Position numbers and translations under genes: made by a program. Below are positions 118 through 43,400 of a DNA stretch of 64,000 nt, piece after piece. Within the stretch, counting starts at the first letter, position 1. The number at the start of each line of letters is the position of its first letter. The notes below the pieces were generated by a model. The model did not search any database, had not been told where the DNA came from, and was given only the letters and a program-made list of their open reading frames with translations. Source of the stretch: Lytechinus pictus (taxonomy: Eukaryota); NCBI RefSeq assembly GCF_037042905.1, contig NC_087251.1, positions 682,001 through 746,000 of the forward strand, in the 5' to 3' direction.

Positions 118-2658
118 CAGCGGCGTAACAGGAGTCGGTGGCCAGGGGGGGCAAGAGCCAAAAATTTCCCGGTCATATCATGGTATGAACAGGCGTAATG
201 GTGTAATGAGGCGACTATTTTAAGAAGGCCGGATATTGCGTATCGAGCAAAATTTATCTTTTAAAAAAATTGCGAGCGAGCAAAATTTTTGACCTTTTTG
301 ATACAAAAATCAAATTTTGTGATAGATTTTGACATGATATCCAGAGAATAACATATTTCACTCTTCTCTCTTTAGATTCCCTTTTTGTCTCACCTGCATA
401 GCAGAGTGAGACTATAGGCGCCGCTTTTCCGACGGCGGCGGCGTCAACACCAAATCTTAACCTGAGGTTAAGTTTTTGAAATGACAGCATAACTTAGAAA
501 GTATATGGACCTAGTTCATGAAACTTGGCCATAAGGTTAATCAAGTATTACTGAACATCCTGCCTGAGTTTCATGTCACATGACCAAGGTCAAAGGTCAT
601 TTAGGGTCAATGAACTTAGACCATGTTGGGGGAATCAACATCAAAATCTTAACCTAAGGTTAAGTTTTTGAAATGTCATCATAACTTAGAAAATATATGG
701 ACCTAGTTCATGAAACTTATACATAAGGTTAATCAAGTATCACTGAACATCCTGCATGAGTTTCACATCACATGACCAAGGTCAAAGGTCATTTAGGGTC
801 AATGAACTTTGGCCGAATTGGGGGTATCTGTTGAATTACCATCATAACTTTGAAAGTTTATGGATCTGATTCATGAAACTTGGACATAATAGTAATCAAG
901 TATTACTAAACATCCTGTGCAAGTTTCAGGTCATATGATCAAGGTCAAAGGTCATTTAGGGTCAATGAACTTTGGCCAAATTGGGGTATTTGTTGAATTA
1001 CAGCCATAAATTTGAAAGTGTGTTGGTCTAGTTCATAAAACTTGGACATAATAGTAATCAAGTATCACTGAACATCCTGTGCGAGTTTCAGGTCACATGA
1101 TCAAGGTCAAAGGTCATGTAAGGTCAAAGAACTTTGGCCACGTTGGGGGTATTTGTTGAATTGCCATCATATCTCTATAAGTGTATTGGTCTAGTTCATA
1201 AAACGTGGAAATAAGAGTAACCAAGTATCACTGAACATCTTGTGCGAGTTATAGTAGTTTTCAAAATCAGCACTGCTGCTATATTGAATCGCGTGATGCA
1301 GGTGAGACGGCCAGAGGCATTCCACTTGTTTGTGGTCTGTACGCCACTGTGAACAGGATTCTTTGCGGCAGTAGCGTGAGAGTAAAAAAAAAAAACGAGG
1401 GGCGCAGTATAGCACATGTGCTAAAAAGCTGCTTTATATAAGTCCCGAGAGAGCGAAGTGAGCGAGAAAAAAATCAACTATTAATGAGAATCTAACTTTG
1501 AGCTATTATTGACATTATATTCAGTAAATAAAACCGTATCCTACACTTTTCCTTTGCTTTTCTTTCCTCCTTTTTTGTTGTTCTTGTTTGTAGAACTTTT
1601 TGGAGCCATGGCCCAACTCTGCCATACGCAGTGCTGTGCAGTTGGGGTCCGGGGCGGAGCCCCCAGAACTTTTTTATATCAAAGCCATTAAACCTCGCAT
1701 ATTGCCGCTATTATTTTTAATCAAATCGCGGGCATATACAGAATATAGCTTTTACACAACACATTCATTCAACCCAGTTGCGTAATGAACCAAATATTTT
1801 GAGGGGGCAAAACATAGCAATGTGTGAAAAATTAGTAAAAAGTTGCCAGCGTGCAAAGCGAGCTGGAAAAAAGAAATTGCCTATTGAAATTAAATTATAA
1901 TTATGTGATAGATTTTTTCATTATATTCAGCAAATAACACATTTCATTGTTTCTATTCATTTCATTATATGTTGTCTCCTATAGTTTCTTTTATTTCCTC
2001 TTGGGTGTGGAACCAAGACCACCCCCCCCCCCCCCCCCCCCGCGCCTGTATGCAAGTGATTGAACGGGGTGCGTTATAGAGCCATTTGAAGGTTATAAAT
2101 AATGAAGAGCCCCTACTGCGTGGGGTCTGGGGCAAAGCCCCTTGCTTATTTGCGTGAAATTTAGCAAGCTTATAGCACAATGTTATTTGCAGTCCATCTT
2201 TCTTCCCGCTCTTTAATTTCAATCATCGGTAGCCCGGTCGTGTTATTATTTTTTTTGTCCCTTTGCTTTGTTTTCCAATTTAGCTTTTGATTAATTACAT
2301 TCTACCTTCGTTTCCCGCTATTGTTTGCCGTTTTGCCATCTTTTAATTTATTTCCCACCGTGCTATTGCATTACATAGGCCTATTTCGGAATGATTTGTT
2401 CTTTCTCAAATGTTCTTCTTTCGTACATTTTCCCGCTTTCCTTCCTTTTTCATTAAAAAAAACGTTTTTCCTTCGTTTTCTTTTCCCTTTTCCCCTTCCC
2501 TTTCCTTTTCCTCCTTTCCTTTTCCCCTTTCCTCCCCCTTTCCCTTTCTTTCTCCCTCCTTTTTTTCTTTTTCCCGTTTTTCTTTTATTTTCCTGGTGAA
2601 ATCCGCCAGGGGGGGCAGCTTGCCCCCCCCCCCCCCCCCCCCGCCTGTTACGCCACTG
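118..2658. mobile_element. hAT-like non-autonomous DNA transposon carrying a nested HINE
   Basis: TIRs CAGCGGCGTAACAGG / CCTGTTACGCCACTG; perfect 8-bp TSD AGGAACAC at 110-117 and 2659-2666. Confidence 0.85.
384..1330 (+). mobile_element. Helentron-associated non-autonomous element (HINE / DINE-1 / pearl-like), family A copy 1
   Basis: Inserted in a T-run. 5' subTIR GTCTCACCTGCAT with a nearby inverted GTGAGAC, a (GGC)n microsatellite, 4+ internal ~162-190-bp tandem units, 3' subTIR ATGCAGGTGAGAC and terminal CCACTTGTT. Confidence 0.8.
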
Positions 2659-2792
2659 AGGAACACTCATTGTATAAATGCTTTTTCAAGAGCACAAATT
2701 GAGTTGGGTATGAGAAGAGGTGATTTTGATTAAAAATCAAAATTCATTTGATATAATCTGAATTTTAAAATATGATTGTTATTATTGTTTAG

Positions 2793-2856
2793 GTACAACG
2801 TGGAACAAGAACAAAAGCTTGCAAATGAGACTACAGTACTTGTGGAGAATTACACA
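2793..2856 (+). CDS. ACTR2: Arp2 exon ([21 protein letters not shown])
   Basis: tttag acceptor ending at 2792, gtaagt donor at 2857; peptide matches Arp2; not in the ORF track. Confidence 0.95.
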
Positions 2857-5800
2857 GTAAGTAATGATTAAATATGCATCAATATATAGACCTTTAATGA
2901 TAAGTGCAAATTGTAGCACAGAGAGCAATCAAATTTTGTTCATGATATTGTTCTTAAACATGGCCCACTGCAAAAGATTGCTCTTCCATTGGCCTCACAC
3001 TAAAAATGTAACAACTGAAACTACCTTGCTGATAATCAGGGGTAGTCCTTTGTGTGCTTATCTATGTCCAGTATATGTGACCTTTAGAAGAATTTAGTCA
3101 ATTTACTATCTTTTGGAAATTTCATTGCTTCATTCAGCTCTCCACCTCAAAAAAAAATCTGTTTACAAAATGCCCGTCAAATTAGCAGTGGATGGACATA
3201 CAGACATAAGGATGACTTTTCTTTTACAGATATACTTCATGAAGAAAATCTGAAATACCTCTAAGAAGTTCTGAATGTCTGAATAAAAAATGCATTGTAA
3301 AAAGAAAAATGTCACAAATTGAACTATCCCTTACCTCTTACAAATTTTGCCCCTACATCAGCTTGTGAGCAAACAAAAGTTCTTCACTGCATTATCAACA
3401 ACCTTTCACAAATCATAACTCTCATTCTTTTATGGATTTCATCAAACCTTTCAATATTTCAACTAATTTTTCTGCTTTTATTAAACCAATCATAAGGGTA
3501 AACTTCCTGTTTAACAATTAAAATTGTTTATTTTCAAAGATGAGATTCAACTTGTAGCTAATGCTAATCAGCAAATGAGATGATTGATAATATGAAGAAA
3601 AGGTCACCAGTCTTGTTACACCACCCTGGTTTAATGTAGTGACTAGTTTTATTATGGCTAACTTCCTAGACTAAAGTTGAAATACCCTATTGCTTTACCT
3701 TTCAGCTTCCTGATGGACGTCAGATAAAGGTCGGAGGTGAAAGGTTTGGTGCTCCTGAAGCTCTCTTTCAACCACATCTTATCAACCAGGAAGGAGTTGG
3801 AATTTCAGAATTACTCTTCAATACTATCAATGTAATAATAATAATCTATCAAATGGGGGTCAGTTTGCACAAAGTGGTCTTGGACATTAAATAGAAACAA
3901 TTCATAGTTAAACACTTTCAAATTTAATGGGTTATTTCATAAGCAACTCTCATGATGAAATGGTCCTCAGGGGGTCTTTGACATGAGCTTACTAATAGGT
4001 CATTAATGCTGTATCATAGTTTAGAGAGGTCTCTTCAAATTTGAAATCAATGTCAAGGTTGATTGAAATATTAGGTAATAGCACACAAATGATGAGGAAG
4101 ATTAGGTCTGGAACCAAAAATAAAGGCGTAGTTTTCACCTTTTAAAAATCTGACCAAGGGAAGTCAAATAACATAATTGCCAGGACAATAATCCTCATGA
4201 AAAAATTTCAACATGGATTAGTTTGTTTAATGAATTACCTGGGGTAGGACCCGTGCTGAAATGAAATGAAAAATGAAACCTTTTATGATGAATCGGAACC
4301 CTAAAAAAAAAGGAAAGGAACTGCTTACATGTATAAAATGCATACTAAGATTAGCTTTGAATGTACCTACAGACATAAGGATGACTTTCTTTTACAGAAG
4401 TACTTAATGAAGAGAATTTGAAATACCTCTAAGAAGTTCTGAATGTCTGAAAGTAATATCCATTGTAATTAGAAAAAAGTCACAACTTGGAGTACACCTC
4501 GTCTCTTCGCTGAATCCTGTATATTGATGTATTCAGTGGTTTCATAGGAATGGATAATCTCTAATATATATTATAAAGCCTGTATGTCTTGAAGTAGATA
4601 ACAATACGATATCAGAATCAGTTAAAAGCAATGAAGCACCCACTACCATACATGTATTTACATTATTGAGGCCAAGCCAATTATGCTGTACCATGGGATT
4701 TCTTTGCCTGGTTAGTTTCAGACTAGGGATGGTGAGATAATGTTCTTTTCTATATCAGGCAAGAATAATATCTATTTATTATAAAATTTAATTCTATTGG
4801 TTGAGATCTGTTGCTTTTGTAATTCCCTCTAGGGGTATGAAGGGTAATTCTAAACATCACAAGTTTGTCTTAAAATAATTTTTTTTTATAGAAGTTAACT
4901 TCACCATGAAGGTGTTTTTTTTCAGCATTCTTGTACATTGTATATTCATACCACCACTCTCCTGTTTGGTAAAAAAAAAAAAACTTTTTGAATGATTTAT
5001 TTCAGGCTGCTGATATTGATACCAGATCCGAGTTTTACAAGCACATAGTATTATCTGGTGGTTCTACCATGTATCCAGGCTTCCCATCCCGTTTAGAAAG
5101 AGAGATCAAACAACTCTACCTTGAGCGAGTACTGAAGGGTGATACTGCTAAATTATCTGTAAGAACTTCTTTTATTGTAGTTTTTTTCTCACATGTATAG
5201 CAGAGCAACACTATATACGCTGCTTTTCTGACGGCGGCAGCAGCAGCGAATCTTAACCAAGATTTATATAAAGTTTTTGAATTGTCATGACTTAGACCTA
5301 TTTCATGAAGCTTGGACATACGGGTAATCAAGTATCACTTAATCATCTTGCACAAGTTGCATGTCACCTGACAAGGGTCAAAGGTCATTTAGGGTCAATG
5401 TACTTTGAAATCTTAAAGTAGGTTAAGTTTTTGAAATGTCATAACTTTAAAAGTATAGATCTATTTTATGAATCTTACATAAGAGTAATCAAGAACCAGT
5501 GAACATTACTGTGCAAGTTTCAGGTCACATGACAAAGTTTAATGGTCTTTGGCCATGAAGCAGTCAGTCTGCAAGCCCCTGAGTTAATGAGCAAATGAGC
5601 AAGATTTATCCAAGTCCTCTCGTGGCTGAATTCATGTCCCTGCAAAATCTTGTGAATTGTGAGACTTTGTTTCTCAAAGAATTTAACCACTTTTTCTTGA
5701 GTAAAATTGATTATTTTTATACCATATGAAAGAGTAAACGTTACTCTTTTATACTGATTATTTCTTTTGAATAAAATATTATGATAAATAAGTGAATTTT

Positions 5801-8800
5801 AGGCATGAAAAGATGCCTCAAACAGTTTTCTTCCTCTTTTTTCTCTTGCAAATTGTGTTTTAGGCACAAACATTATTGATATCATCAGAAAGCTCAAACT
5901 CTATACTTTCTTACTATGTCACTTTTGATATGTGGCACCTTTTAGATGGGTCAGCAGCCAGCTTTTTCCAACAAATGTTAGACAAGATTTCTTAAATTTC
6001 TGAGTAGCATAAAATCCAGAGTTCTGATTGGTTAAATAGTGTTTTCAAAACAACAGGTGTGGGTAATTTGATGAGATTACCACATGGTGAGTGTGACCTT
6101 GCAGAGGCCCAGTGTGGGAACATTGGAATTTGCGTGGGTGTGTGGTCTCTATGACCAATCAGAGCGCAGTATTCTTGTTTTTAAACTGCTAAATGTACTT
6201 GGCCTGTAAAAAGCTGGTTGCTGACCCATCTAAGATACCTCTTCTTATAAAAATTATATCATATTAAAGCTTAGATCTTCAGCTTTATCATAATCTAAAG
6301 ATTATTTGGGCCCAACCAGAAATTAGGTGTAAAAACAACAAGTTTTGTTCGCATAAAAATAATTATTTTGTTTCATGTTTTAGATCAAAAGTTTCATCTA
6401 TGTTACAAAATCTTTTTTTTAATCCAGAAACATGACCTGAAAGAATGATATTTCTTCTTTATAATGACACCAAAAACATGAAATTTGGTCAATATTTAGA
6501 GCAGCAATGGCCGAATAAAAAGAGGTGTTTTCATCCGCACCAAGCTCATTAACAATGCAAAAACCCTCTAGTCATGAATATCACTTGGATAAAAGAAGCA
6601 ACCGGGGGGGGGGGGGGCCATTATGGCCCCCCCCTTAAGATCTCAGCCGCGGATTGCGCGATCACAACGAAAATTTGCATGATGGTAGAGAACGACGTAA
6701 TCTACGCAGTTGCATTGGCAAATTTCACTGAATTCATATATTTTTATTTTATATGAATTCATTATGCTAATTTATTCATGAAATCGTATTTTTTGCTCTG
6801 ATACACTAAATAAAGCTCCTAGAATGCTATTTTTTGGTGAAAATATTCTTTATAGCATTCCTAACAATTGTAAATGAAAAAAATTCTGGTACCAAGACCG
6901 ATTTCTTATGTATTTTATTGTTTTTTAAATTTCTTATGTATTTCTTTGTTTTTTTACTTTTTGTTTTGTTATTGTTTTTTCGATGGAAATCGTTCCAGAC
7001 TTAATTCTGATCATAAACAAGGCAAAATTAATTAAGTTTGATAAGTAAAAGTAGAAATAATGATACATTTATGAATTTTGGCTAATACACAATCTGCATT
7101 GGATTTGTACATGAAATCACGAGCAATTTAGGGTCTGACATGCACTTACATAATGTTGTGTAATGTCGTAACCGCGTACCCGGGAGTCACAAAATTGGTC
7201 TAAAACTTTGCGCGAGACTTAAAAGTAAAAAGTCAGTGAGCGGCAAGGTCAAAAAAATTTGCACAGCAGATATATCGCGAAAATTGTCGAGGGTGGGCCA
7301 TTATGCCCCCCCCCCCCCCCGGGAGAATTAGGGTTAAGCCCTTGAAGTGTTTTTTTTTTTTTTTTGGGGGGGGGGGGTTGTTTTGTTTACATACTCTGTA
7401 GGATTTTGATCAAATGCAATGAAAACCTGTCTCTGCTGATTGGGCTACCCTTTTTAAATATATGTAATAAATAAAATTTCTGGTTTTTGGATTCATTTTA
7501 TAGTTTGTGGGAATTTTGTATTTATTTCTGTATTTTTTCCCTTTTTTATTGTTTTTTATGGAAATTGGATGGAAAGGAAATTTTTCCAATCATAAACAAC
7601 ATGAAATTAATTGATTTCAATTAGTAATAGTAACTATGACATACCTACCAATATTCCTATTTTAGGGAAAAGAAAATTGCCATTTTAACTGAATGGCAAT
7701 ATTACTAAATTGTACTTTTGCGAGCCCTGGCCATGGAAAAAAATTTTCTTACTCTCTTCTTTTCTTTAATTTTTGTCTTGCCTGCATAGCAGAGCGAGAT
7801 TATAGGCGCCACTTTTCTGACGGTGGCTGCGGCGTCGTCAACATTGAAATCTTAAAGGTGAATGAAACCTTTGGAATAAGTGGGCTTGTGTCGAAACAGA
7901 AAAATCATAGAAACAGATCATCAAAAGTTTGAGAAAAATCGAACAAACAATGTGAAAGTTATGAGCATTTGAATATTGCAATCACTATTGCTATCGAGAT
8001 CCTCCCATTGGTTATGCGACAAGGATGTGTGATGTCACATGTGAACAACTTTCCCTTTGATGGAATACCCCCAAAATGTCTCTTTTTGCTTTTTCTTATG
8101 GTGATACAAACTCTTTATCCAAGATGTATTCTTTAAAAATCTGAATTACATGCCCTCCTATAGAAAGAACACATGATCTACTGATAGATGTGATAAAAGA
8201 GGCAATTGAAAGGGGAATCCAACCCAAATAAAAAGTTGTTTTTATAAGAAAAAGAAAAATCAGACAAGTTGATAGGTGAAAGTTTGAACAATATTGGACA
8301 AACAACAAGAAAGTTATGAATTTTTAAAAGTTGTAAATATTCGTAATCACTATACTCATGGAGACTTCAAATTGGCCGCATATGGGATGTCATAGTGATG
8401 TAAGGCAAGGACTACTCTTCCATGTACTCCAATACATATTATGGCTAAGATGTCATTTTTCCCAAAAGTTTTACTTCAAATTATATTTTTCTTTCATGAG
8501 GACATTAAACAATATACTACCTGGGTTATATTTAGATTACTGCCCCAGGGGAATGGATACTTAGGAGAAAACCACAAATCCCTGATAATAAAGTACATGG
8601 CCTATGGGAAAGTAGTCTAGTTCTAGACGATTTTAAACGAATCTATTTGCACCACGATATAATACGTTCTATTCCGTGCGTACGCCCAGCCGAGTGTGCG
8701 CGCAAAACCGAGAACCTGTACTCCGAGGAAAAATCGTCTAGACCAGTTGCTCTGCGGTGACGTCAGAGGTCAAAGGTCAACGGACGAGTGCTTCATAAAT

Positions 8801-11800
8801 ATGCATGAGTTACTTGTCAATCTCGCCGCGCCGAACAACAGTGCAACGTTGTTTACGTTTTGCACGTGTTATCAGCTGTGTGCATGCATTGTACACATGG
8901 GATTGATGTAATACTCAGTAGATCTACGTGATATCAATACATGTACACGTATCATACGAAAGTTTGAGATAGTTCATTATTTTTAAGGCTACAAATAGAC
9001 ATTTCATTGTTGGGAAATTACTGTAACATGCATAGGCCTATAGTTATTTCACTCAATGTGCATATCTTGGTTAAATCTGTGGGTATGATGTTACCATCAT
9101 GATATATGAAAGAAGGTGCTATTGTACCAAATTTCAAACTTCAAAACAATACAGACTAGTTTTTCCACTTTATTCAGATGGAATAATTAATATACAAGTT
9201 TGAATGATATATTTTATATTCTTCTTCATCTACACATGTAATTACATAGAGGTAATTTGTCTTAGTATGGGTATTGAAAATTAAGACTCATAAATGTAAA
9301 CTCTCATTCTTGTGAATGGATCACATCACGGTACATTTTACTGTGGGCACTTGTAAATATATCATTTTCAATGTCTTCTTCACATATTTCACTGTCAGAG
9401 AGTATGACAAAAAGGGTTGAGAAGTACATGTACTTTGTACAGATTAGTACAGAGCTGTGAAAGGGATAAGGAAAACAGAATAAAAATCATTAATGATTTT
9501 TAAAAGTAGATTAATCTCAGGCTCACAAAAATTTTGTATGCGGATTTTGATGCGTGCAGTACATCAGATTTTGGAAGAAAATCTTTGCAGTTGTCCTTGG
9601 AACTTTTAGTTTATTTATTTACTTTAAAAGAACATCTAGATAATGCGTACAATTATTTTTGTTGTTCAGCTACATTATAATCTAGCTACATGTAGCCAGG
9701 AAATGATATTGCCAATGATGTACATGAAGCCTCTTCGATAAATAAAGGCACCTTTTCTCATTACATTTGAAGTACAGTATTTATGAAATATATTTTTGCA
9801 GCCATTATGAAAGAGCATATTGTGTTCAGATCTACATGTAATTTGCCAGTTAATTAAATTGCTAGTAACTATTCCATTGCAGTGTAAGTTTTACATGTAG
9901 TTTGCATAGGCGGATCCAGCTTTTGGCGAAAGGGGGGGGGGGCACACTGCCGAGCGGCGCACATAATTATTTTTGCACTTCACCGGCGCCATAAAAGAAA
10001 ATGTTGAAAAAGGGCTAAAGTCTGACCCTGTCAAATGCTCTTTTCAAAATGTAGGACTTTCAGTCATGCCATTTTACATGACCACACGCAGATAATATTT
10101 CCGGGGGGGGGGGGGGAACTCGAACATATTTTTGAAAAAAATAAAAATAAAAACGATAGAGTAAACGGACCGAGCTGCTCAATGGGGCGATTATTTTTTT
10201 TACAAGTGTAATAAAAGTATTTGGTGCACATCTCACATTTGCACATTTTTCATAGTTTTCATGAAATGTTAAGGGAAAAAATGTGTTTTCACAACAACTG
10301 ATCGGGAATTTGCCCCCCCCCCCCTTCCCCCTTGCTGCGTACGAACATTCCCTGAAGTCCACTTAAACATATATCATTATAACAGAAAATATACATGAAT
10401 ATAAACATATAATCTTTCTAAGACATATATAGAGAGAGATTGAAAAACTTATTAAAGAAAGAAACAAACAAATTATGCATGTTATGTGCGATTTCAAAAT
10501 CTCGTGTACTAACCCTTTTATTGCGATGAGGCAAATACTTGTGTATATTAATTGAGATACAAGTTTTTTTTTTACTATATATACAAAGGGGCGTCGATCC
10601 TTTTTTCAGATTGGGGGGGGGGGCAAAATCATGAATCAACTTTCCAAAGACGCTCGATCACACAAAACAAACTCACACACACTCATATGTATATATATAT
10701 ATATATATATATTTCAGCGCGAGCTGAAATTTTTTAGTATACTGACCTGAAAACAGGAAAAAGGTGCCTTTTAAAGACTGTTTGTAGTAACTCATGAGGA
10801 GAATACATATCTCACTACACAGATAATGCGAGTGCCGAGGGCGAGCTGAAATTTCTTTATATTCTGACCAGAAAGCTTGATATCTTATATGCATTTTGGT
10901 ACCAATGATTAAGATGGGTATCTAAAAAAGACAATAGATGCGAGCGCGAAGCGCGAGCTTAAAATTTTAATATTTCGATCTGAAAAAAATGAGTTTAATG
11001 GACGTTTTTAAAAAAGAACAAGATTATATCCAACAAAACAATATGATCGACGCCTCTGTATATACAATGATACTACATCATGAATCATTCGGAATACATC
11101 ACCAATCCAGGTTTATATATTATCATTCAATTTTCATGTACATGATGTATACATCATGTACAGAATTTAGTATATATTGTGATGCTTTTCACTAAATCTA
11201 ATGCAATTTGTAATGATGAGTAATTTTATCTAATTAATTTGATGAAACTGGATATGATGGTTATGACCTGAATTCAGAAAGAGATCCTTCAAGACAGAGC
11301 TTTGGAAATAGTTCTCCTGTTTTACAGGTATCGTTATCTTTGTATTTAACTTCTTCCTGAGTGATCAGATGAATAATATTTAACTTAATGGAAGATGAAA
11401 ATAAATCAAATTTTGTGGCGTAAACATTTAAACGTTAAAACAAAGATATTGACAAACTGTATTAATACATTGAAAATGATATTTAGTGGTTTAAGGTCTA
11501 ACGAATATACGTCTGGTTGCGTAATTATACACTCCCTGTAATAGCAACGGGTTTTAGCAAAGTTTTGGACTAAAATATCGAATCATCTTCATAAAACACT
11601 TTAGTAGCTGTCTTACACTAAAGGCCATACAGGTGGCACAACGTGGAATGTGTAAAGAAGAAAAGTGACTGACCTTTTTTATTAAAGCATTGGAAAATAA
11701 GATCAAAATTAAAGGATTTGCTCTACGCTTTTGTATGATTCTGGGATATTTTTCAATAACAAAAGTTTAGATTTTATGACATCTGTGTGAAACTCCCCCG

Positions 11801-14800
11801 CCCCAGTCCACTCTGTAAGGGCATGTGATAAGCTTTGTTATGACCATTCAACAATAAAATGTATAACCAGGTGCCGCTGACCATTCTTGACCGGCGCCGA
11901 TCTAGATTTGGTTGGCAATAGGCCCTTCTTCATTATTCTACCGGCGCCTAATTATTGGAACCAGGGGACGCTGATTATTCTTGACCGGCCCGATTTAAAT
12001 TTAGGTGGCGCCGGTTAAGACAAAGGCAGTGCCGATTTGTCTTGACCGGCGCCGATTTAGAACAAGTAGTGCTGATTATTTTTACCGACGTCCAGACGTC
12101 ACGTAAGATTCAGGCAGCGGCAAATGATCGACTGGCGCCGATTTAGAACCAGGAGGCGCCGATTATTCTTGTCCGGCGCCGATTTAGATTTAGGTGGAGC
12201 TGATTATTCTTGATCGGCGCCGGTTAAGACTCAGGCAGTGCCGATTTATAATCGGATGGCGCTGATTATTCTTGACCAGCCCCGATTTAGAATGGCGCTG
12301 ATTATCCTTGATCGGCGCCGGTTAAGAACTCAGGCAGCGCCGATTTTTCTTTACCAGCGCCGATTTATAACCAGATGGCGCCGATTATTCTTGCCCGGCG
12401 CCGATTTAGATTTAGGTGGAGCTGATTATTCTTGTCCGGCCCTGATTTAGATTTAGGTGGCGCTGATTATCATTGATTGGCGCCGGTTAAGAACACAGGT
12501 AGCGTCGATTTTTCTTGGCGCCGATTTATAACCAAATGGCGGTGATTATTCTTGTCCGGCGCCGATTTAGATTTAGGTAGCGCTGATTATTCTTGATTGG
12601 TGCCAGTTATATGCTGGCAGCGCACAGCTGATAATTTTTTACCGGCGAAGTTGTTGGGAAAAGGGTAGTTAAAAGAAAAGATAAGGAAGATGATATGACA
12701 TTATTGTGCTTTGCTGGGGGATAGTATTTCCTTTACTGTCGCTAATATTATATCAGTGTATATTTTTTTTAAGCGGCGCCTTTTCTTTTCTTTCCTTTAT
12801 TTTTATTTTTTCAAGCAGCGCCTTTTCTTTCTTTTACTTTTCTTTTATTTTTTAGGGGGGGGGAGCGCTCCCCCTGCGCCATCCCCCTGGATCCGCCACT
12901 GGTTTGTGATTTTTTTTATTTAGAAGCTGTAGTATTAAGAAGTAAATATCTTAAAGTCACTATAGCGTATCTAAGGGGGGGGGGCAGTCTGCCCCCCTGA
13001 CGAGCCACAACCCATGCAAAGGACGTATCCTGGCCCCCTGACGAGATTGAAAGGCCTTTTTTGCCCCCCCCCCCTGACGAGCTTGAAGACCTTTATTGCC
13101 CCCCCCCCCTGACGAGCTTGAGCTTGAAGACCCTTTTTTTTTTGCTTGTCAATTTTTTTTTCAGGTACGAAGTTCTTTATTTCACGGTGATTGAATACTT
13201 TTTTTTTTGCCCCCCCCCCCTGTGGAAAATTCTAGGTACGCCACTGTTTCAATTCAATTCAAATTTATTTATTTCACTTCCATCAAACAAAAACAAATTG
13301 TGTACCATATATAAACATAAATTTTTGTATCCGTTGTAAACAAAATTAATGATACATCTGTTGTGAAAAAAACACTTAGACAATTTGGGCAACACATTGT
13401 AGGTTTTAAATATGTATACTATTTTTCAATAGAAATTAAATTAAGATGGAAATGGAGGGACCCACTAAAAAGCAATGCTTGTACATTGTGGGCCCCTCAA
13501 GAAATAGATAACACAACAAATAACAAAATAACAAAGTATAAATACAGATAATCAAATGAGAAAAAATGAATAAATGAGAGGGAAACACTCACAAAATAAA
13601 TACAAAGTTATCAAAAATATATAGTTTGATAAAGGACAAAACAACCCGTCCTCAATACCTACCCTTCCCCATCCCCCCCCCCCCCCCAGAAAAAGAGAAG
13701 AAAAAAGGGGAGAATGCCCTGAGAAGATGGATGGGTGCTGCTGTACGTAGATAGAACACATGCCTCAAGCAAACTGGATTCAATGATGTGTATAAAAGGA
13801 GAAAAAATATATAAAATAACCTGGAAAGAATATAATGCACAAAAAATATGATTGATGCCGTAAACAAATAACCGGTAGGAAGGCGGATAAGCGGACAGGA
13901 GATGAGAAAATAAAGGAGAGGATATACACAATAATGAGCACATCTGAGAAGGACTTGTGTCAGATTTTTTTTTTAAATAAAAAAAGGATAATAATTATTT
14001 TATGTTTTAATTGTAGTTTAAAGTAATAATGATGACTTGACAGAGATGATGAATTAAACTTAATTTGGGAGTATATTATAAGGTTTTAATAGAGATAATT
14101 TGAATTTAGTCTTAAAAGAGTTCAAAGATTTTGCATTTGTTATATCATTATGAAGTGAGTTCCATAACTTCGGTCCATCATATATAAATGTGTTCTGAGC
14201 CCGCAACGTTCTTAAAAGTGGTAAATGAAATTCACCCAATCGCCTTGTTGGATAGTTGTGAATGGATTGATTTTTTTGGAAACATTGAATTAAATACATT
14301 TGGGAGGTTGTTGTTGTTATAGTTATACATAAACTGACCGAGATTAAAGTGATTAAAGTGATATACTGTACGTACAAATATGACCGACTTGTTTCGAGTT
14401 TTGTTTTACCGCATTCAGGTCATGGTTCTTTATGATTTTTTTTGTTCCAGAGAGAGTTTACTCAGTCCACTTCAACATATGCAAAATGGAGACAATTACT
14501 GGATTCTTGTTCTACTGCAAATGCCAATTATTGTTTGGTCAGCCATACTATGAAAAAACTGTACATTTCAGATCAAACTTGCCAGTTAAAGGACAAGTCC
14601 ACCTCAACAAAAAGCTGACTTGAATAGATAAAGAAAAATCAAACAAACATAACTCTGAAAATTTCATCAAAATCGGATGTAAAATAAGAAAGTTATAACA
14701 TTTTTAAGTTTCGCTTAATTTTTCAAAACAGTTATATGCACATCTTAGTCAGTATGCAAATGAGGGGACCGATGACATCATTCACTCACTATTTCTTTTG

Positions 14801-17800
14801 TATTTTATTTTATGAAATATGAAATATTTTGATTTTCTCGTCATTGTCTGTGAAACAAAGTTGTCTGTGAAACAAAGTTTCATTCCTCCCTGAACACATG
14901 TAATTCCATTATTCTCACATTTTGTGGTTCGAGCAAAGGGGTACTAATTGTCGAATTCGTACAAATTGAAATATTGTATTATTCAAACAATAAAAAACAC
15001 AAGAAATAGTGAGTGAGTGACATCATCGACTCTCTCATTTGCAAATCACCGAGTTGAGTATAGAACTGTTTTGTGAAAAATAAGCAAAACTTTAAAATGT
15101 CATAACTTTCCTATTTTACGTCCGATTTTGATGAAATTTTCAGCATTATTCATGTTTGATTTTTCTCTATTTATTAAAATCAATTTTTTCTTTGCCATAT
15201 TACTGCCATGTGAACAAAGGAAGCAACTCTGTCTCTGTGGAACAAGTTTATGAGGAAATTAGTAAAATTGTCATTGTCATTTTACATGTGGAAATATAGA
15301 ATTTCTTGTTTTTTTTAAGAAACTTGGGGCCATGTGACTTCAATTAAACTGGCATCATGAAGAGCTTACATAATTAACCCAAATCAAGGGGGATGGTCAA
15401 TTTTGAAGGATAAAAAGTTGCTACCCTCCCAGTAGGAACACTCAAGAAGACATCGTGGCCTCGGAGGAAACTTTTTAATTCGAGAGAACTTTGTTCTGTT
15501 GGATCTTCAAAGTCGTTGTTCCCAACTGTTTGGACATAGGCCTATGTATGCAGGATGGAATCTCTGATAGAATGACGTTCATTTTCCGTCGCCATCACAC
15601 CATATAAAAAAAACGAAGATAAGTGATCAAGACCTGTATGCACACTATAGCTGATTTGGTAAACAAGCAAGAAACTGAATTTGGAAACCGCGCGCAGTAT
15701 ACAATACACAATACAACCAGGGAGTCTCCCTGATACAACAGCACGATACAGTACACAAATCTATGGCTTATGTTGTGCTGCTTTGTGCGATCCGATTGAT
15801 TCTGTAATCCATATACGATAGTCTACGCTTATAAACCCTATTGTAGGTATCAGGGGAAACATACACGATACGATTCATTTCTGATGTTTTTGTGTGTTTA
15901 ATTTGATTTCTTTTATCAATTATTTATAACAAAAAGTCCTTTCTTAGGTAATTGATATTCATTTTATCGGTAGATCACACCATATTTCTCAACCGAGTAA
16001 TCTTCCCTGCTGTTAACAAAGACTAGCGGCTAAACGGGAGGCGTGTCCACTTTTAACGACTTTCCCTCAAAAATCTGAGGGAGTGACGTCACCGCAGAGC
16101 AACTGGTCTAGACGATTTTTCCTCGGAGTACAGGTTCTCGGTTTTGCGCGCACACTCGGCTGGGCGTACGCACGGAATAGAACGTATTATATCGTGGTGC
16201 AAATAGATTCGTTTAAAATCGTCTAGAACTAGACTAATGGGAAAGTTGTCCTTGCCCCTTGTCATAATTTACTTACACAGTTGCCAATTTGAAATGTACA
16301 TACTATTAGTGATCTCAATTTTAAAGCAGCTATAACTTTCTTATTGCTTGTCCGATGTCTTTCAAACTTTCACCATTCTGTTTCATTTATTTTTCTCCTT
16401 CCCAACACAACAGTTTATGGCCAAGGCTGGATTCCCCTTTAAGTGAAATATATACTAAAGTAATGGGGAGAGTTGTTCACAAGTGACATCACACATCTTT
16501 GTCGCATTGCCAGTGTGAGGATCTCCATAGCATTACTGATCGCAATATTCAAATGCTCATAACCTTCACATTATTTGTCCGATTTTTCTCAAACTTTCGT
16601 TGATCTGTTTTCTGTTTTCACAAAAGCTATCTTGTTCTAAAGGTTTCATTCTCCTTTAACCAAGGTTAAGTTTTTGAAATGTCATCATAACTTAAAAAGT
16701 ATATTGACCTAGTTCATGAAACTTGGACATAAAGGGTAATCAAGTATTACTGAACATCCTGCCTGAGTTTCAGATCACATGGCCAAGGTCAAAGGTCACT
16801 TTGGGTCAACAATCTTTGACCATTTTGGGGGTATTTGTGGAATTGTCATAACTTTGAAATTTTATGGATCTAGTTCATGAAACTTAGACATGATAGCAAT
16901 TATAAGTATCCCTGAACATCCTGCCCGAGTTTCAGGTCACATGACCGAGGTCAAAGGTTATTTAGGGTCAATGAACTTTGACCATTTTGGGGGTATTTGT
17001 GGAATTGTCATCATAATTAGTTTATGGATCTAGTTCATGAAACTTGGACATAGAGTAACCATGTATCCCTGAATATCCTGTGCACGTTTCAGGTCACATG
17101 ACCAATATCAAAGGTCATTAAGGTCAATGAACTTTGGTCATTTTAGGGGTATTTGTTGAATTGGCATCACAACTTAAAAAGTTTATGGATCTACACATGT
17201 AGTTCATGAAACATAGATATAAGGGTAATCAAGTATGTTTTGCACACATCTTAGGTCACATGATCATGGTCACGTTGAGTCAATGGACATAGTATTTTAT
17301 TGTCATATGAGTGTTTTCTTTTGTGAATAATTTTTCAATAGCTGTTTTCAAAGACAGCTTTGCTGCTATATCGAATTGCATTATGCAGGCGAGACTGCCA
17401 GTGGCGTTCCACTTGTTACTTATTTATATATAATTATTCATTTTCAAATCGTATTTTTGTCTCGCCTGCATAGCAGAGCGAGACTATAGGCGCCGCTTTT
17501 CCGACGGCGGCGGCGGCGTCAACATCAAATCTTAACCTAAGGTTAAGTTTTTGAAATGACATCATAACTTAGAAAGTATATGGACCTAGTTCATGAAACC
17601 TGGACATAAGGTTAATCAAGTATTATTATAGAATGGATGGGGAAATCCCTGCAATCTGATTGGTTGAGAGCTATGCAAGAATTTTTACTGGCTGCATGAA
17701 CGATATCCCGATAATCAAAACGATATCCACTGTAAACAAGCTATCGTCCGAAAAGGTCATTGTGATGTCATTGCGCATGTACTGTTACGCTTGTTTACGT

Positions 17801-20800
17801 CAAATTTTTGAATTTTCGATCAAGGCAGAATGAATCAAATAAAGGATGCAAAATTATCTGTAAGTACAAATACGGTACCGTAATTGTCATTAGGATTAAA
17901 ACTGCCTACATACTCGTTAGTTGAGAAGTCCAGACATACGATCTAACGTGCCCTGGGCTGGCTGTGCACAGCCAAACCTCAACTGCAGGCCCAGGCAGCG
18001 GCGTAGGCACTGGCCCCCGGCGCGGCCCGGGCATACCGGTACCTAGTCAATGCAAAGCTGTATCTGGCATTTTGGGTATAATAATGCCTTTGTGCCAACA
18101 TATTTTCAAGTTAGGCATACATATTTTTTGTTGTCCAGGGTTATCAATTGGTCTGCATTACATTTTGGAATTTTCATACATCTGGTAATAAATCATGCGT
18201 CCGGTAAAAAAAATCATGCGTCCGGTAAATATTTTCATGCGTCCGGTAAATTGAATTTACCGGACGCATGAAATTACCATGTATCCGGTAAATCATTAAT
18301 TTTTGTGGTTTATTCAATAATTTTTTTTCCATTCTATAAAACAGATGATGCATGGGTTTATTTCGTGGGTCAGTGGAACTGTGTGCACTCGGTAACTTTG
18401 GCATTATGGTCTAAACCCACTCGGCTGCGCCTCGTGGGTTAAACCATGCCAAAGTTACCTTGTGCACACAGTTCCTACTGACCCACTCTAACCCATGCAT
18501 CATTTGTATACTGAACATCCTGCCTGAGTTTCAGGTCACATGACCAAGGTCAAAGGTCATTTAGGGTCAATGAACTTAGACCATGTTGGCAAAATTATTT
18601 TCAAAATCTTAACCAAAGGTTAAGTTTTTGAAATGACATCATAACTTAGAAAGTATATGGACCTAGTTCATGAAACTTGGGCATAAGGTTAATCAAGTAT
18701 TAGTGAACATCCTGCTCGAGTTTCAGGTCACGTGACCAAGGTCAAAGGTCATTTAGGGTCAATGAACTTTGGTCAAGTTGGGGGTATTTGTTGAATTACT
18801 ATCATAACTTTGATTATTTATGGATCTAGTCCATGAAACTTGGACATAAGGTTAATCAAGTATTAGTGAACATCCTGCCTGAGTTTCAGGTCACATGACC
18901 AAGGTCAAAGGTCATTTAGGGTCAATGAACTTTGGCCAAGTTGGGGGTATTTGTTAAATTACCATCATAACTTTGAAAATTTATGGATTTAGTTCATGAA
19001 ACTTGGACATTAGGTTAATCAAGTACCACTGAATATCCTGTGCGAGTTTCAGGTCACATGACCATGGTCAAAGGTCATTGAACTTTGGCCGTGTTGGGGG
19101 TATTTGTTGAATTACCATCCTAACTGTGAAAGTTTATGGATCTAGTTCATAAAACTTGGGATATAAGAGTAATCAAGCATCACTGAACATCCCCTGTGAG
19201 TTTCAGGTCACAAAACCAAGTCAAAGGTCAGTTAAGGTCAATAAACTTAGGCCATGTTGGGGTAATTGTTGAAGTGCCATCATAACTTTGAAAGTTTATG
19301 GATAGAGTGAATGAAATGTGGACATGGGTGTAGTTGACAGTCTTAAGTCTCCGTTCAAATGTCATTTATGGTCAATGAACGTGGTATTATGTCATTATAT
19401 GAATGATGTTTTTGTGAATGATTATTTTATAGTAGTTTTCAAAGTTAGCACTGCTGCTATATTAGATTGCGTAATGCAGGCGAGACTGCCAGAGGCGTTC
19501 CACTTGTTTTCTTTACATTGTACAGATTTTGTATGTTTTATGGCCAAATAAATGATAATAATGATAACTCCAGTGTTCTTATTTCTGGAATTTCCTTGTA
19601 ATTTGTTCCCATTTCTGTCAGGATTGGCAGCTATGTAATTATACAATTATGAATTTTGGGTCTAACATGCAGTTGTATAATTTTGGTAATGAGTAACAGC
19701 ACAAATTCAGTCTTCAAATGGTGCATCACGACGTTGTAGATTTATCATGTAAATAGTTGAAAGACATACTGGCCCGAATTCACATTGGTATTTTGAACCC
19801 ATGGTTCATGCAGATTTCCTGTATGAATTAAGCCTAATTTACCACATATAATACAAATGTCCTATGCTGACACATTTTGTCACAGTGTGCCAAATTGACG
19901 TCTGTGGCCATAGTTAAGTACGCTATTTTATTCACGATTCCACTGCTTTGAATGAAATGAGTCCCTGTTCAAAAAAGGGAACTCATGAATAAAATAGCAT
20001 ACTCAACCATGGCAACAGGTGTCATTTTGGTGCACTGTGACGAAAGAGCATCAGCATTGGACAATTTTTATTATACGTGGTATTTAAGCGTCATTTATAG
20101 TGGGTTCAACCGATGGTTTTCAAAACCACCTTTGTGAATTTTTAGGTTTAAGGCATGGTCTTGTGACTATTGCTGCTAATTCTCTTTGCCCTGATTATTG
20201 TTGTAGTTAGTACAGTACTACTCGTCATGTGATAACAAATGATTAGATTCACTGTGATAGACAACTTATTTAGATCAATTCAATTAAATGGGGTTTTTCA
20301 ATGTTTCCTTTTTCAATGTGATATAGTCCTGTACTTCGTCCAAAAAACAAGTTATTTTCATTGTTTGTAACTTCCCTTTGTTTTGTTTTGAATAAAGGTG
20401 ATATTTAAAAAAAAACAGCTTAAACTGATTATTTTCCTGCATTTGTTACTCTACATAATTTTCTATATTGGTACTTTTTACTTGTTTTGTTTTATAATCC
20501 ATGATATTGACCTGCCATTTGTTCGAAATCGACCTGGTCTCTTTATGTATGTATTATATCATTGTCTTTAAACTTGAATAAAGTCATGATTCCACAAACC
20601 TCAAGATATTTCTAAAATTTTGAAGACTTGGTTTTTATCAGTTTTGGGAGATAACTATGTTTATTCTTGTCATAAATTTTATTTTATATTTCATGAGATT
20701 GACATTAACACTACTATTGGGAGAATGATTAATGTTTCCTCAAGAAAACATCAAGAGATTAGCCCTGCACAATTTTGTTATCCATGCTCGTAACATTTTT

Positions 20801-20999
20801 TTGACGTTGTGATTTGTTTTTACCTCAGAAATTCAAGCTAAGGATTGAGGACCCACCCCGACGTAAACACATGGTGTTCCTTGGTGGAGCTGTTCTAGCA
20901 GACATCATGAAAGACAAAGATTCTTTCTGGATCTCAAGGGAAGAGTACAATGAAAAAGGCCTCAAATGTTTGGAGAAGCTAGGAGTGGGTCCAAAATAG
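2793..20999 (+). CDS. ACTR2: Actin-related protein 2 (Arp2/3 complex), 3' part; exons 2793-2856, 3706-3831, 5006-5158, 20829-20999
   Basis: The spliced exons (all AG/GT bounded, phases compatible) read (G)[170 protein letters not shown]. This is recognisably the C-terminal ~170 aa of Arp2. Upstream exons lie before the window. Confidence 0.97.
3201..3281 (+). ncRNA. SNORD61: Intronic box C/D snoRNA, U61/SNORD61-like (guide for 18S rRNA), copy 1
   Basis: Terminal stem CAGACAT/ATGTCTG; C box AGGATGA at 3209-3215; D box CTGA at 3271-3274. The guide CCTCTAAGAAGTT just upstream of D is the exact complement of the conserved 18S stretch AACTTCTTAGAGG and is the same guide-plus-D box as remembered vertebrate U61. 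Sense to the host gene. Confidence 0.85.
3706..3831 (+). CDS. ACTR2: Arp2 exon ([14 protein letters not shown]...LLFNTIN)
   Basis: ttcag acceptor, gtaata donor; 42 codons with the actin-family LPDG..I.VG.ERF.APE.LF.P motif. Confidence 0.95.
4370..4449 (+). ncRNA. SNORD61: Intronic box C/D snoRNA, U61/SNORD61-like, copy 2
   Basis: Same stem, C box (4378-4384), guide and D box (4439-4442) as copy 1, located in the next intron; differences are confined to the middle of the RNA. Confidence 0.85.
5006..5158 (+). CDS. ACTR2: Arp2 exon ([25 protein letters not shown]...KLS)
   Basis: ttcag acceptor, gtaaga donor; 51 codons; lies within ORF 4988..5200. Confidence 0.96.
5186..5556 (+). mobile_element. 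HINE family A, degenerate 5' fragment
   Basis: Diverged 5' end (catgtatagcagagc...gacggcggcagc) plus about two tandem units; no 3' end. Confidence 0.65.
5580..6553. mobile_element. Palindromic MITE-like element, unclassified
   Basis: Inverted motif pairs TTAATGAGC/GCTCATTAA and TTAGATGGGTCAGCAGCCAGCTTTT (5942) / AAAAGCTGGTTGCTGACCCATCTAA (~6208); boundaries approximate. Confidence 0.45.
6600..7333. mobile_element. piggyBac-like MITE fragment
   Basis: Right end ATTAGGG followed by TTAA; GGGCCATTATG(G)CCCCC motif near both ends; left TIR not found. Confidence 0.45.
9905..12901. mobile_element. Composite TIR element(s) with hAT-like ends, inside the AcademH-like element
   Basis: Ends CATAGGCGGATCCAG / CTGGATCCGCCACTG; only a 5-bp GTTTG repeat flanks it (no 8-bp TSD); other element ends lie inside. 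Confidence 0.5.
11870..12650. repeat. GC-rich degenerate tandem array built from ~20-bp subunits (GGCGCCGATTATTCTTGACC / GGCGCCGATTTAGATTTAGGT)
   Basis: Visible alternating subunits, each beginning GGCGC(C/T)G. Confidence 0.85.
12960..13246. mobile_element. Small hAT-like MITE
   Basis: Right end CTAGGTACGCCACTG, decayed left end, internal CCCCCCTGACGAG repeats; no TSD recognised. Confidence 0.5.
13248..14310 (-). mobile_element. 5'-truncated non-LTR retrotransposon (CR1/L2/Crack group) 3' end
   Basis: ORF 14060..14377 ends with the typical ORF2 C-terminal motif HNYPTR...FHLP..RT...[11 protein letters not shown]...I....SL.SFK..FK..LL; the 3' tail on - is AATAAAT(TTGAA)n. Confidence 0.85.
14590..15190. 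mobile_element. Kolobok-like MITE C, right TIR lost
   Basis: TTAA followed by AGGACAAGTCCACC; same family as 54564-55168. Confidence 0.7.
15424..15595 (-). pseudogene. Decayed N-terminus of a RecQ-like SF2 helicase (transposon-borne)
   Basis: ATG at 15595. Reads [17 protein letters not shown], then in a shifted frame [17 protein letters not shown], then back in frame [16 protein letters not shown], resembling the Q-motif and the lead-in to Walker A (..G.DVF...PTG.GKS). Confidence 0.6.
17456..19508 (+). mobile_element. HINE family A copy, interrupted at 17626-18508
   Basis: Full 5' and 3' ends and about 5 tandem units; the unit sequence caagtatta|ctgaac is split by the insert. Confidence 0.85.
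17626..18508. mobile_element. Unclassified insertion with a long terminal hairpin (possibly Crypton-like)
   Basis: TA on both sides; TTATAGAATGGA inverted at ~18328-18339; ~170-bp imperfect palindrome at 18340-18508 centred on CACTCGGCTGCGCCTCGTG. Confidence 0.6.
20829..20999 (+). CDS. ACTR2: Arp2 last coding exon ([20 protein letters not shown]...GPK*)
   Basis: cctcag acceptor, TAG stop at 20997-20999; lies within ORF 20814..20999. Confidence 0.96.
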
Positions 21000-40411: not shown

Positions 40412-43400
40412 CTGTTGGTTTAATAGAGAGAAAGAGAACACAGAAAGAATACACAGATATTAATTACCTAGGGTTTTTCATGGACAAAGTTATATTTTTC
40501 CCCACGGGATAATCTTTTGCCTGAAGCGCGCAGTGCTGAGGGAAAATATTCTCGCGAGAGAAAAATATACCTTCGGAGGGGAATTGAAATGTTATCTATT
40601 AAACAGACCAGGTAATATCTCTTATATTATATATAAGAACCATATTGCCTTCGTCTAAAGACTCGGGCCAATATGATTTTGTTGCGGACAATACATTTGA
40701 TGTTCCTCTCAAGGCCAGTCAATATGATATAAATATATAATGTCTATGCACACCCTGTTACCACGGCTTTACACAGATATTAACTAAAATATGGATATTC
40801 ATAAACTGCATTGTTGGGTATCTTGACATGTAAAATTTTTAGTTTCAATTGTGCTTTAATGAATAATGTAAGAAAGCTAACATTTTAACATTTAATGATA
40901 TAAAATATAAAATAATGCTTTCATTGACCATTAGCAGGTATAAAGAAAGCTAACCAAAGTTATCGACCAATCAAAATACTATTAATAATTGTAGATCCAC
41001 ATGAATGTGTTTTATAATCTAGCTGTCGTAACAGACTATTAAAAAAAAAATAGTATACATAGAATTTCATGTTAGCACGACTGTATACATTGCACAGATT
41101 TCCTGTGTGAAAAAAAAAATACTAATGATTATCCAAATTACCTTTATCATGATAAGGTTTTTTCGTCTTTGGTTTTTCAGGGCTTGGAACTGGCTCAGTT
41201 GCATCAAAATCTAGCAAAGACGGGGACAGAATGGCAACAAGCAAAAATTATTGGTAAAGGTATTGGTTCTGCAACATTAGTTGGCTACAGAACAGAGGTT
41301 TTAACCCATTATACTTTGAGCAACTATTAGATAAAAAACTTTCTAATAAGAACCTGTACTGTAGACAAAATATTATCAACAAATTTGTTATTCTCTTATT
41401 TATATAAAAGTTGTTCCTTTAAAATGAGAACTTTTCAAATGTATAACAAGTGGTGTGAATATTAATTAATTGCTCACCTTTTTCATCAGTGTGTGAAATC
41501 TTTGTAGGCCATTTGGTTTCAGGTTCAAATATGTCTTTATCTACAAATTCAACCAAATGATATTTCATTTGAAACAATTAACATTAATTACAAAATACAT
41601 CACAGTAATGATTCAATTGACATAATAGGCTGGACGAAATGCTAGGTTCAGGTTGGTATAAGGGTGAAAACTCCATTAATATAGCAAAACATGCATTTTT
41701 ATCTAAACTATCTATAACAGTATACAATCTAAAATTCAAAATCAAACTGTTTTGGGGAATATATGAAAATCTAAGGTAGTTTTTCACTTTATTACATATT
41801 TTTCTTTCCTTTTATTTTTGTAATCATGTCTGATTAATTAGATATCTAAAGAAGAAAAAGATGAGATAAAGAATGAATGGATTATGAAAATCTTGGAAAA
41901 TTCTAAAAGTATAGTGAATTCTTGTAAATTAAAATTTGCAAAGAAATCTTTTAAACAACAAATAAAATTTAATGTCAAATTTTTGCAATTTTTCAATTTT
42001 CTGAGTCAAGATTTTGACATCATTTTTTTCTGAGACAGAACATTTTACTAAAAGAACATTTTTACTACAATAAATATTTTAGTTGCATATTTGAATAATA
42101 CTAATAGATCACATTAGCCCTGAAAAATATTCTTGCACTGATAACGTTAACTTTAATAAACAAGATACTTTACAAATATTTATGGATAACATAGACATCT
42201 TGGCTGGTGACAGAAAACCAATTAAAAACAAAGAAAATGAACAGTCATCTTTATCACATATCTCTTAATATAAACACAGGTGTTTTGAGATAGGGAAAGA
42301 ATTTCAGTAAGCTATGATAACAAACCAGGGTCACATCTTATGTAAAGTTTAAATCAATATCAGCTATGGAAGGCCAGTAATGCCAGAATTCATCGCTAAG
42401 TCATCACTATACTCGTGCACTGCATGCATCAGCAATTTGAGCAATTAAAAAATCATTTTTCATTTACAAAATGACAGAGCAGTCTGATTTAACCATGCTG
42501 GCATACTATAGTGGAGAATTTGCGGCATGAGTTTCAATCAGTATAACTGTATTTAGTCATGCACACATTGATATTTTTTTGCATAGAAGAATATTCCACA
42601 AATTGAAGTCAATGCATTCTTGAAAATGGGTGTGCTAAAACTGTTTTTTGTTATAGAAGTCTTAAACTTTGTTTGCACATTGGAGACATACATGCAATCA
42701 AGAGGATTCACCCTTTGACCTTTCTGGCATGCGGTATTCACTTGAAGTATTTGTTTGAAGAATTTAGAAATGTAAATACTTGTAAAATAATTTAGTGGCT
42801 CTTTGAAATTGAATTAAGTATCAAACTATGAGACTTAGTGTCTGTGTTGGTTTAGGAGACCACATAAACCTCAGAGCCAGCAATTTATGATAAAATGCAA
42901 GTTTTGAGAATTTACACAAATTGTTAAAATGACTACCACCTTGAAAAAAAAGGTAATAATCATTCAACTTGTACAGTGGACGTATCCACTCTGGAGAGTG
43001 CTCCAGGCACTAGGTTTTGGGGGGTGGGGATTTGTATCCACTCTGGAGAGTGCTCAAGGCACTAGGTTTTGGGGGGTGGGGATTGGTATCCACTCTGGAG
43101 AGTGCTCAAGGCACTAGGTTTTGGGGGGTGGGGATTGGTATCCACTCTGAAGAGTGCTCAAGGCACTAGGTTGTTGGGGTGGGGATTGGTATCCACTCTG
43201 AAGAGTGCTCAAGGGACTAGGTTGTTGGGGGTGGGGATTTGCATCCACTCTGAAGAGTGCTCAAGGGACTAGGTTGTTGGGGTGGGGATTGGTATCCACT
43301 CTGAAGAGTGCTCAAGGGACTAGGTTGTTGGGGGTGGGGATTGGTATCCACTCTGAAGAGTGCTCAAGGGACTAGGTTGTTGGGGTGGGGATTTGTATCC

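Follow-up and report, generated by a model that had tools for sequence, protein, structure and literature searches.

A pair of SNORD61-family snoRNA genes hosted by two neighbouring Arp2 introns in a sea urchin

Results and Discussion

Gene content of the Arp2 locus

The window, i.e., the whole 64-kb stretch of Lytechinus pictus DNA that was analysed, carries coding exons of Arp2 on its plus strand (Table 1); the 5′ exons of the gene were not found within the window. The exons were assigned to Arp2 with E = 1e-25, versus 2e-7 for Arp3 and 5e-7 for actin. In two stranded RNA runs with the same species label (X19 and X20), the splice joints 2856→3706 and 3831→5006 were each supported by 48–50 reads per run. 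According to these stranded junction reads, the two snoRNA copies described below occupy separate spliced introns on the host sense strand, 424 nt (copy 1) and 556 nt (copy 2) ahead of the respective 3′ splice site. The original prediction, made from the sequence alone, had named Arp2 as the gene to which both introns belong, and the junction reads and the phmmer matches agree with it.

The donor site of intron B (3832–3837, GTAATA) is off consensus at positions +4 to +6, and its junction reads are about as numerous as those of intron A. The last Arp2 intron (5159–20828), at approximately 15.7 kb, far exceeds both snoRNA-bearing introns and contains no Rfam snoRNA match to an E value of 5. A dispersed repeat with internal units of approximately 162 bp occurs at 350–1250, 5150–5570, and 7740–7830, in several Arp2 introns (families D1–D5). 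Tail to tail with Arp2, exons resembling CRIM1 (VWC and antistasin repeats) extend over approximately 40000–63300 on the minus strand; one of them has 94% identity to CRIM1 of Lytechinus variegatus and 67% identity to that of Diadema. This CRIM1-like region also contains low-complexity tracts resembling tandem repeats (43300–44100, 50750–51060, and 60030–60430), seen as repetitive open frames.

Table 1. Features of the Arp2 introns and their snoRNA copies (positions in the window).
Feature	Position	Strand	Evidence
Arp2 coding exon 5′ of intron A	2793..2856	+	read depth ~49, junction 2856→3706, translation
Host intron of copy 1 (Arp2 intron A; GT..AG, 849 nt)	2857..3705	+	49 and 50 junction reads (X19, X20)
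Copy 1 of the duplicated segment (snoRNA flanked by ~50 nt on either side; approximate left boundary)	3145..3339	+	local alignment, BLAST core
SNORD61/U61-type box C/D snoRNA, copy 1	3201..3281	+	Rfam RF00270 and motifs
Copy 1 stem	3201-3207/3275-3281	+	motif reading
Copy 1 C box	3209-3215	+	motif reading
Copy 1 putative D′ (CAGA)	3228-3231	+	motif reading
Copy 1 putative C′ (AUGAAGA)	3239-3245	+	motif reading
Copy 1 guide	3258-3270	+	motif reading
Copy 1 D box	3271-3274	+	motif reading
Arp2 coding exon between the host introns	3706..3831	+	phmmer, Arp2 residues 246-286, E 2.5e-18; RNA reads
Host intron of copy 2 (Arp2 intron B; GT..AG, 1174 nt)	3832..5005	+	49 and 48 junction reads
Copy 2 of the duplicated segment (approximate left boundary)	4300..4507	+	local alignment
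SNORD61/U61-type box C/D snoRNA, copy 2	4370..4449	+	Rfam RF00270; present in relative B
Copy 2 stem	4370-4376/4443-4449	+	motif reading
Copy 2 C box	4378-4384	+	motif reading
Copy 2 putative D′	4395-4398	+	motif reading
Copy 2 putative C′	4407-4413	+	motif reading
Copy 2 guide	4426-4438	+	motif reading
Copy 2 D box	4439-4442	+	motif reading
Arp2 coding exon 3′ of intron B	5006..5158	+	phmmer, Arp2 residues 288-338, E 1.1e-25
Last Arp2 coding exon (end approximate, at stop codon)	20829..20993	+	loose read ends at 5158 match 20829; Pfam Actin

Identity of the two snoRNA copies

When the whole window was compared with Rfam at curated thresholds, the sole matches within the 64 kb were the two SNORD61 copies (RF00270, gathering threshold 43 bits), both aligned to the full model length (1–72). 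Copy 1 scored 49.2 bits over 3206–3278, and copy 2 scored 43.7 bits over 4375–4446, just 0.7 bit above the threshold; the covariance model thus recovers the U61-like elements that had been proposed in the two introns. In the Arp2 part of the window (1–22000), Rfam yielded no further snoRNA to an E value of 5, except for a SNORD20 match of 26.5 bits overlapping copy 2.

The motifs could be read as originally described, with two copies of approximately 80 nt sharing an identical stem, C box, 13-nt guide, and D box. Both copies have the perfect 7-bp terminal stem CAGACAU/AUGUCUG, the C box AGGAUGA, the D box CUGA, and the same guide, and the elements of each are arranged in the order stem, C box, U-rich stretch, CAGA, loop of 7–8 nt, AUGAAGA, spacer, guide, CUGA, and stem. 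The putative CAGA and AUGAAGA are identical in both copies, and the gap between D′ and C′ is 7 nt in copy 1 and 8 nt in copy 2. The 17-nt string of guide and D box occurs exactly twice in the 64-kb window, with up to two mismatches tolerated, and two matches were obtained in none of 100 shuffles (shuffle mean, 0.01). The folding energy of the whole molecule is unremarkable (z = −1.9 and −0.8), as expected of a C/D RNA.

The C box departs from RUGAUGA by one base, a G replacing the conserved U, with the GAUGA core intact. The odd base occupies a bulge position of the kink-turn, and the core of G-A, A-G, U-U, and G-C pairs is unbroken. The protein 15.5K normally grips the box C uridine that is replaced here. 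The internal C′ and D′ boxes, which are putative assignments, are likewise imperfect in both copies. In published work on kink-turns, folding induced by ions depended least on the sequence of the loop (reported in PMC5689011), and one consensus kink-turn was required for activity (reported in PMC6770171).

Predicted target in 18S rRNA

The guide forms 13 of 13 Watson–Crick pairs with 18S rRNA from other eukaryotes, as had been claimed for a conserved 18S site, and the duplex has an energy of approximately −20 kcal/mol in all three 18S sequences tested. The complement of the guide was present in all eight eukaryotic 18S-bearing loci fetched, an observation that shows its existence and not its frequency, since the selection pattern contained the complement; all seven of these loci that were scanned matched the Rfam eukaryotic SSU model. 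These eight stretches lie in seven contigs of prokaryotic assemblies (L242–L249), which points to host or other contamination of those assemblies; no 18S was found in viral contigs. The chicken rRNA sequences searched contain the 18S site a single time.

The base at position D−5 is an A, which pairs with the second U of the site, and the base 5 nt further on is a G. This arrangement fits human Um1442 (SNORD61) and Gm1447, both of which are tabulated in PMC11550049; the assignment of U61 to Um1442 is also tabulated in PMC3511168 and PMC8817022. The D+5 rule had been taken to indicate the second U as the equivalent of Um1442, and both the pairing register and the published tables uphold that choice. 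Table S4 of PMC11014333 lists this methylation in human, Xenopus, Arabidopsis, and Dictyostelium and not in Drosophila or budding yeast; given that the corresponding Drosophila position is unmethylated, invertebrates can lose the mark. Drosophila Me18S-U1356 was considered as a U61 orthologue, and this was not supported: the same table aligns human position 1442 with the unmethylated fly position 1572; the two U1356 rows shown there lie in Uhg8. Judging from the sequence of the guide and its target, each copy likely directs one methyl mark on 18S rRNA, at the U matching human Um1442.

A second guide beside D′ was also considered. No match of more than 8 nt was found beside D′ in the partial 18S sequences of L250 and L251 (the L250 sequence being without 28S), and complements of 9 and 10 nt had no match in chicken 18S/28S rRNA. 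The D′-guide region is variable across 16 aligned homologues, and no convincing target of a D′ guide was found in any of the rRNA sequences searched.

Duplication between introns and sequence constraint

BLAST alignment of intron A with intron B revealed one block of 159 nt with 83% identity (E = 2e-43), whose core in copy 1 spans 3181–3339. Within the snoRNA, the paralogues are identical at 75 of 81 columns (93%), and all six differences fall in the middle, sparing the stems, the boxes, and the D guide; the "divergent middle" of the original prediction is therefore correctly placed, and the divergence is mild. The weaker similarity that had been noticed downstream amounts to 37 identical columns of 50 and ends near 3339/4507. 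Similarity upstream, which had been overlooked, extends over 51 columns, of which 29 are identical, a score reached in none of 300 shuffles. More than approximately 50 nt out on either side, similarity is at shuffle level. The suggestion that a segment larger than the snoRNA was duplicated between the introns is thus confirmed, with a length of approximately 190 bp.

The flanks are 57–74% identical, meaning that the two copies have diverged by 26–43% right beside the stems. The contrast between the snoRNA (75 of 81 columns) and the flanks (66 of 101) is significant at p = 6e-6, or at p = 0.004 when the downstream flank alone is considered. A contig of relative B (run X5), which spans copy 2 alone and not 3201–3281 (copy 1), provided a comparison between species. 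Among the differences listed, with 18 of lower support left out (seven of them from run X5), copy 2 has two substitutions in 80 nt, at 4404 and 4406, both in the D′–C′ loop, versus 20 in 255 nt of its flanks, a marginal deficit (one-sided p = 0.069; p = 0.059 when pooled with a second intron piece). The putative CAGA and AUGAAGA of copy 2 are unchanged among these differences. The earlier inference that both copies are under selection is borne out by the contrast between the paralogues, whereas the deficit in the relative concerns copy 2 alone and is marginal (p = 0.06–0.07). Selection on the copies is thus supported, indirectly, by patterns of sequence divergence.

Retroposition of the mature RNA was rejected as the origin of the second copy. 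Because both flanks were copied and no 3′ poly-A tail was seen by eye, a DNA-level copy from one intron to the other is favoured. Extended external stems were also considered and rejected, given that the predicted folds differ between the copies and that the flank of copy 2 has lost bases there in relative B.

Proposed function and alternative explanations

Taken together, we consider it very probable that the locus contains two genes of the SNORD61/U61 family of box C/D snoRNAs, situated in consecutive spliced introns of Arp2 and serving as predicted guides for the 18S equivalent of Um1442. In general, intronic box C/D snoRNAs are processed by an intron-trimming pathway. By analogy, Arp2 would be transcribed and spliced, and the snoRNAs would likely be released from the excised introns, each intron being trimmed to a C/D kink-turn protected by 15.5K, NOP56, NOP58, and fibrillarin; fibrillarin would then methylate the base that pairs with the nucleotide five positions upstream of box D. 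As to origin, U61 may have come to lie in one Arp2 intron, after which approximately 190 bp, including flanks, would have been copied into the next intron, a cis-duplication more likely to have occurred at the DNA level. Both copies would thus serve a single site, and they are likely redundant.

The RNA runs had zero depth over both introns, with reads on exons only and no peaks of read starts or ends; because these were 151-nt reads from long inserts, covering approximately 6% of each run, a 75-nt RNA would probably have been lost from them. In a further run (X15), a 33-mer shared by both copies had a depth of 10, close to the sum of the two introns (2–3 and 8), and therefore neither enrichment nor further transcribed copies were indicated; X15 consists of contigs, which cannot reveal RNA level.

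It is quite unlikely, in our estimation, that one copy works and the other is a young duplicate, or one kept similar by gene conversion, that is silent or decaying. Copy 1 does lie outside the cross-species coverage, neither copy was seen as RNA in the two runs unsuited to short RNA, and gene conversion over a tract with the snoRNA at its centre is another way in which identity there could have been raised. However, the six differences avoid every stem, box, and D guide, whereas the flanks diverge strongly right beside the stems; the Rfam score is higher for copy 1, and conservation in the relative was observed for copy 2. That both copies were weakened or killed by the variant C box, with an intact U61 elsewhere in the genome doing the work, seems highly improbable. 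The AGGAUGA box does contrast with the U present in most of the C-like boxes found among 127 metagenome matches to guide and D box; nevertheless, boxes, stem, and guide are kept between the paralogues and, for copy 2, in a second species, and G occurs at the same C-box position in the homologues L114 and L028, the former having the complete AGGAUGA. Hardly credible is the view that repetitive DNA or chance similarity, and not a snoRNA, accounts for the sequence. The window is indeed rich in repeats, but a high-copy repeat, which had been named as grounds for abandoning the prediction, does not fit the two copies found within 64 kb, and the covariance-model matches pass a curated threshold, with the stem, boxes, and 13-nt rRNA complement in the right order on the host sense strand.

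An extension of the preferred reading, in which both copies are working guides, concerns the history of the variant box. The lineage may have fixed G in place of the protruding box C U in both working copies, with Arp2 being an old and unreported U61 host throughout the echinoderms or ambulacrarians, a scenario that we regard as unlikely. If it were true, the old Arp2 host and the fixed G would constitute a natural test of the tolerance of 15.5K, with duplication offsetting weaker assembly.

Hosts of U61 in other eukaryotes

A metagenome scan with the guide and D box, covering 41 of 64 parts, identified at least 121 loci with at least 127 matches, and a C-like box lay 38–75 nt upstream in 58 of the 127. 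Among 20 loci hand-picked from the 121, Rfam detected SNORD61 above the threshold in 10 and the plant snoU61 in one. The coding segments flanking 17 chosen loci were translated, and host domains were assigned with Pfam. Beside SNORD61 matches, these domains included RRM (L027), ribosomal S4e (L016), TRAP-delta (L050, L066, and L071), myosin head (L062), and pinin (L032); the RRM gene of L027 is presumably RBMX-like. In L027, L066, and L062, the snoRNA has coding segments on both sides. In L016 it follows the coding segments, at the end of the contig, whereas in L032 it precedes the pinin segments matched by Pfam; one of the three guide/D-box copies of L032 was above the Rfam threshold. No host was assigned by Pfam for L018, L041, or L052.

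Several of these loci have features of their own. The three U61-like copies of L032 lie at 1337–3803 on the minus strand, the sense strand of the pinin-like gene, and two are near-identical and one is diverged. In a set of related contigs (L024, L050, L066, L071, and L072), a TRAP-delta (SSR4)-like gene has SNORD61 just 5′ of its final coding exon; the gene was checked with Pfam in L050, L066, and L071. U61 or U61-like elements occur beside RPS4 (L016, 1125–1196) and myosin heavy chain (L062, 4848–4917), and a U61-like element below the Rfam threshold occurs beside an MA3-domain (eIF4G-like) coding segment (L007, 231–247). A low-GC family (L002, L034, L040, L065, L067, L068, L070, and similar) has the guide and D-box match without an upstream C box; these are probably chance matches inside a conserved prokaryotic gene. 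Searches with four Arp2 exons of the window gave no tblastn match in the 121 loci from the 41 of 64 parts, many of whose contigs are short (41 of only ~600 nt).

In the host table of PMC2653536, chicken U61 is a single copy in intron 2 of RBMX; together with the RBMX-like locus L027, this substantiates RBMX as the vertebrate host named in the original prediction. The same prediction called Arp2 an unexpected host implying host-gene switching. The switching is real and not surprising, and Arp2 no longer appears unexpected, because the 20 hand-picked loci include SNORD61 matches within or next to genes of five other types. U61 changes host repeatedly, as predicted by the constrained-drift model presented in PMC3511168, and Arp2 is one more broadly expressed ancient host. 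In a full-text literature search, with most subscription journals outside its scope, no report of Arp2 as a U61 host was found, nor, judged by title, was any such pair found in the literature on sea urchin snoRNA host genes. The observation is an ordinary one, in that the host varies across eukaryotes and a guide of this kind is often copied into the adjacent intron. Both loci have, we assume, probably already been marked by automated Rfam annotation of sea urchin genomes. The value of the observation lies in the annotation and in one data point for snoRNA mobility with the footprint of an intron-to-intron duplication, and no model is changed by it. In practical terms, a sea urchin experiment that alters these Arp2 introns could delete a candidate rRNA methylation guide.

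Comparison with known snoRNA systems

The SNORD61 pair in the sea urchin Arp2 introns is real and well supported, and the family itself is already known. The pair shares with SNORD61/U61 (RF00270, clan CL00067; plant snoU61, RF01170) the box C/D layout, a core of approximately 72 nt, an intronic position on the sense strand, and a D-box guide to the same 18S site with a D+5 target matching Um1442. It differs in its host, which is Arp2 and not RBMX, in the presence of two copies, and in the C box AGGAUGA. With respect to the constrained-drift mobility described by Hoeppner and Poole (2012, PMC3511168), the locus likewise has a snoRNA of a LECA-level clan in an ancient, broadly expressed host gene other than its vertebrate host; however, the host-gene table in that paper includes RBMX, ARP3, and ARPC2, whereas ARP2/ACTR2 does not appear in it by name. 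Copying into a neighbouring intron is given as the principal route of duplication in chicken (PMC2653536) and is also described in sponges (PMC3412847). The urchin pair resembles these cis-duplicated intronic snoRNAs in occupying neighbouring introns with a conserved guide and boxes, and the identity of its copies (93%) is close to the 94% given for sponge copies in PMC3412847. In contrast to the chicken and sponge examples presented in those two papers, it belongs to another family and another host, and it retains approximately 50 nt of alignable flank on each side of the snoRNA.
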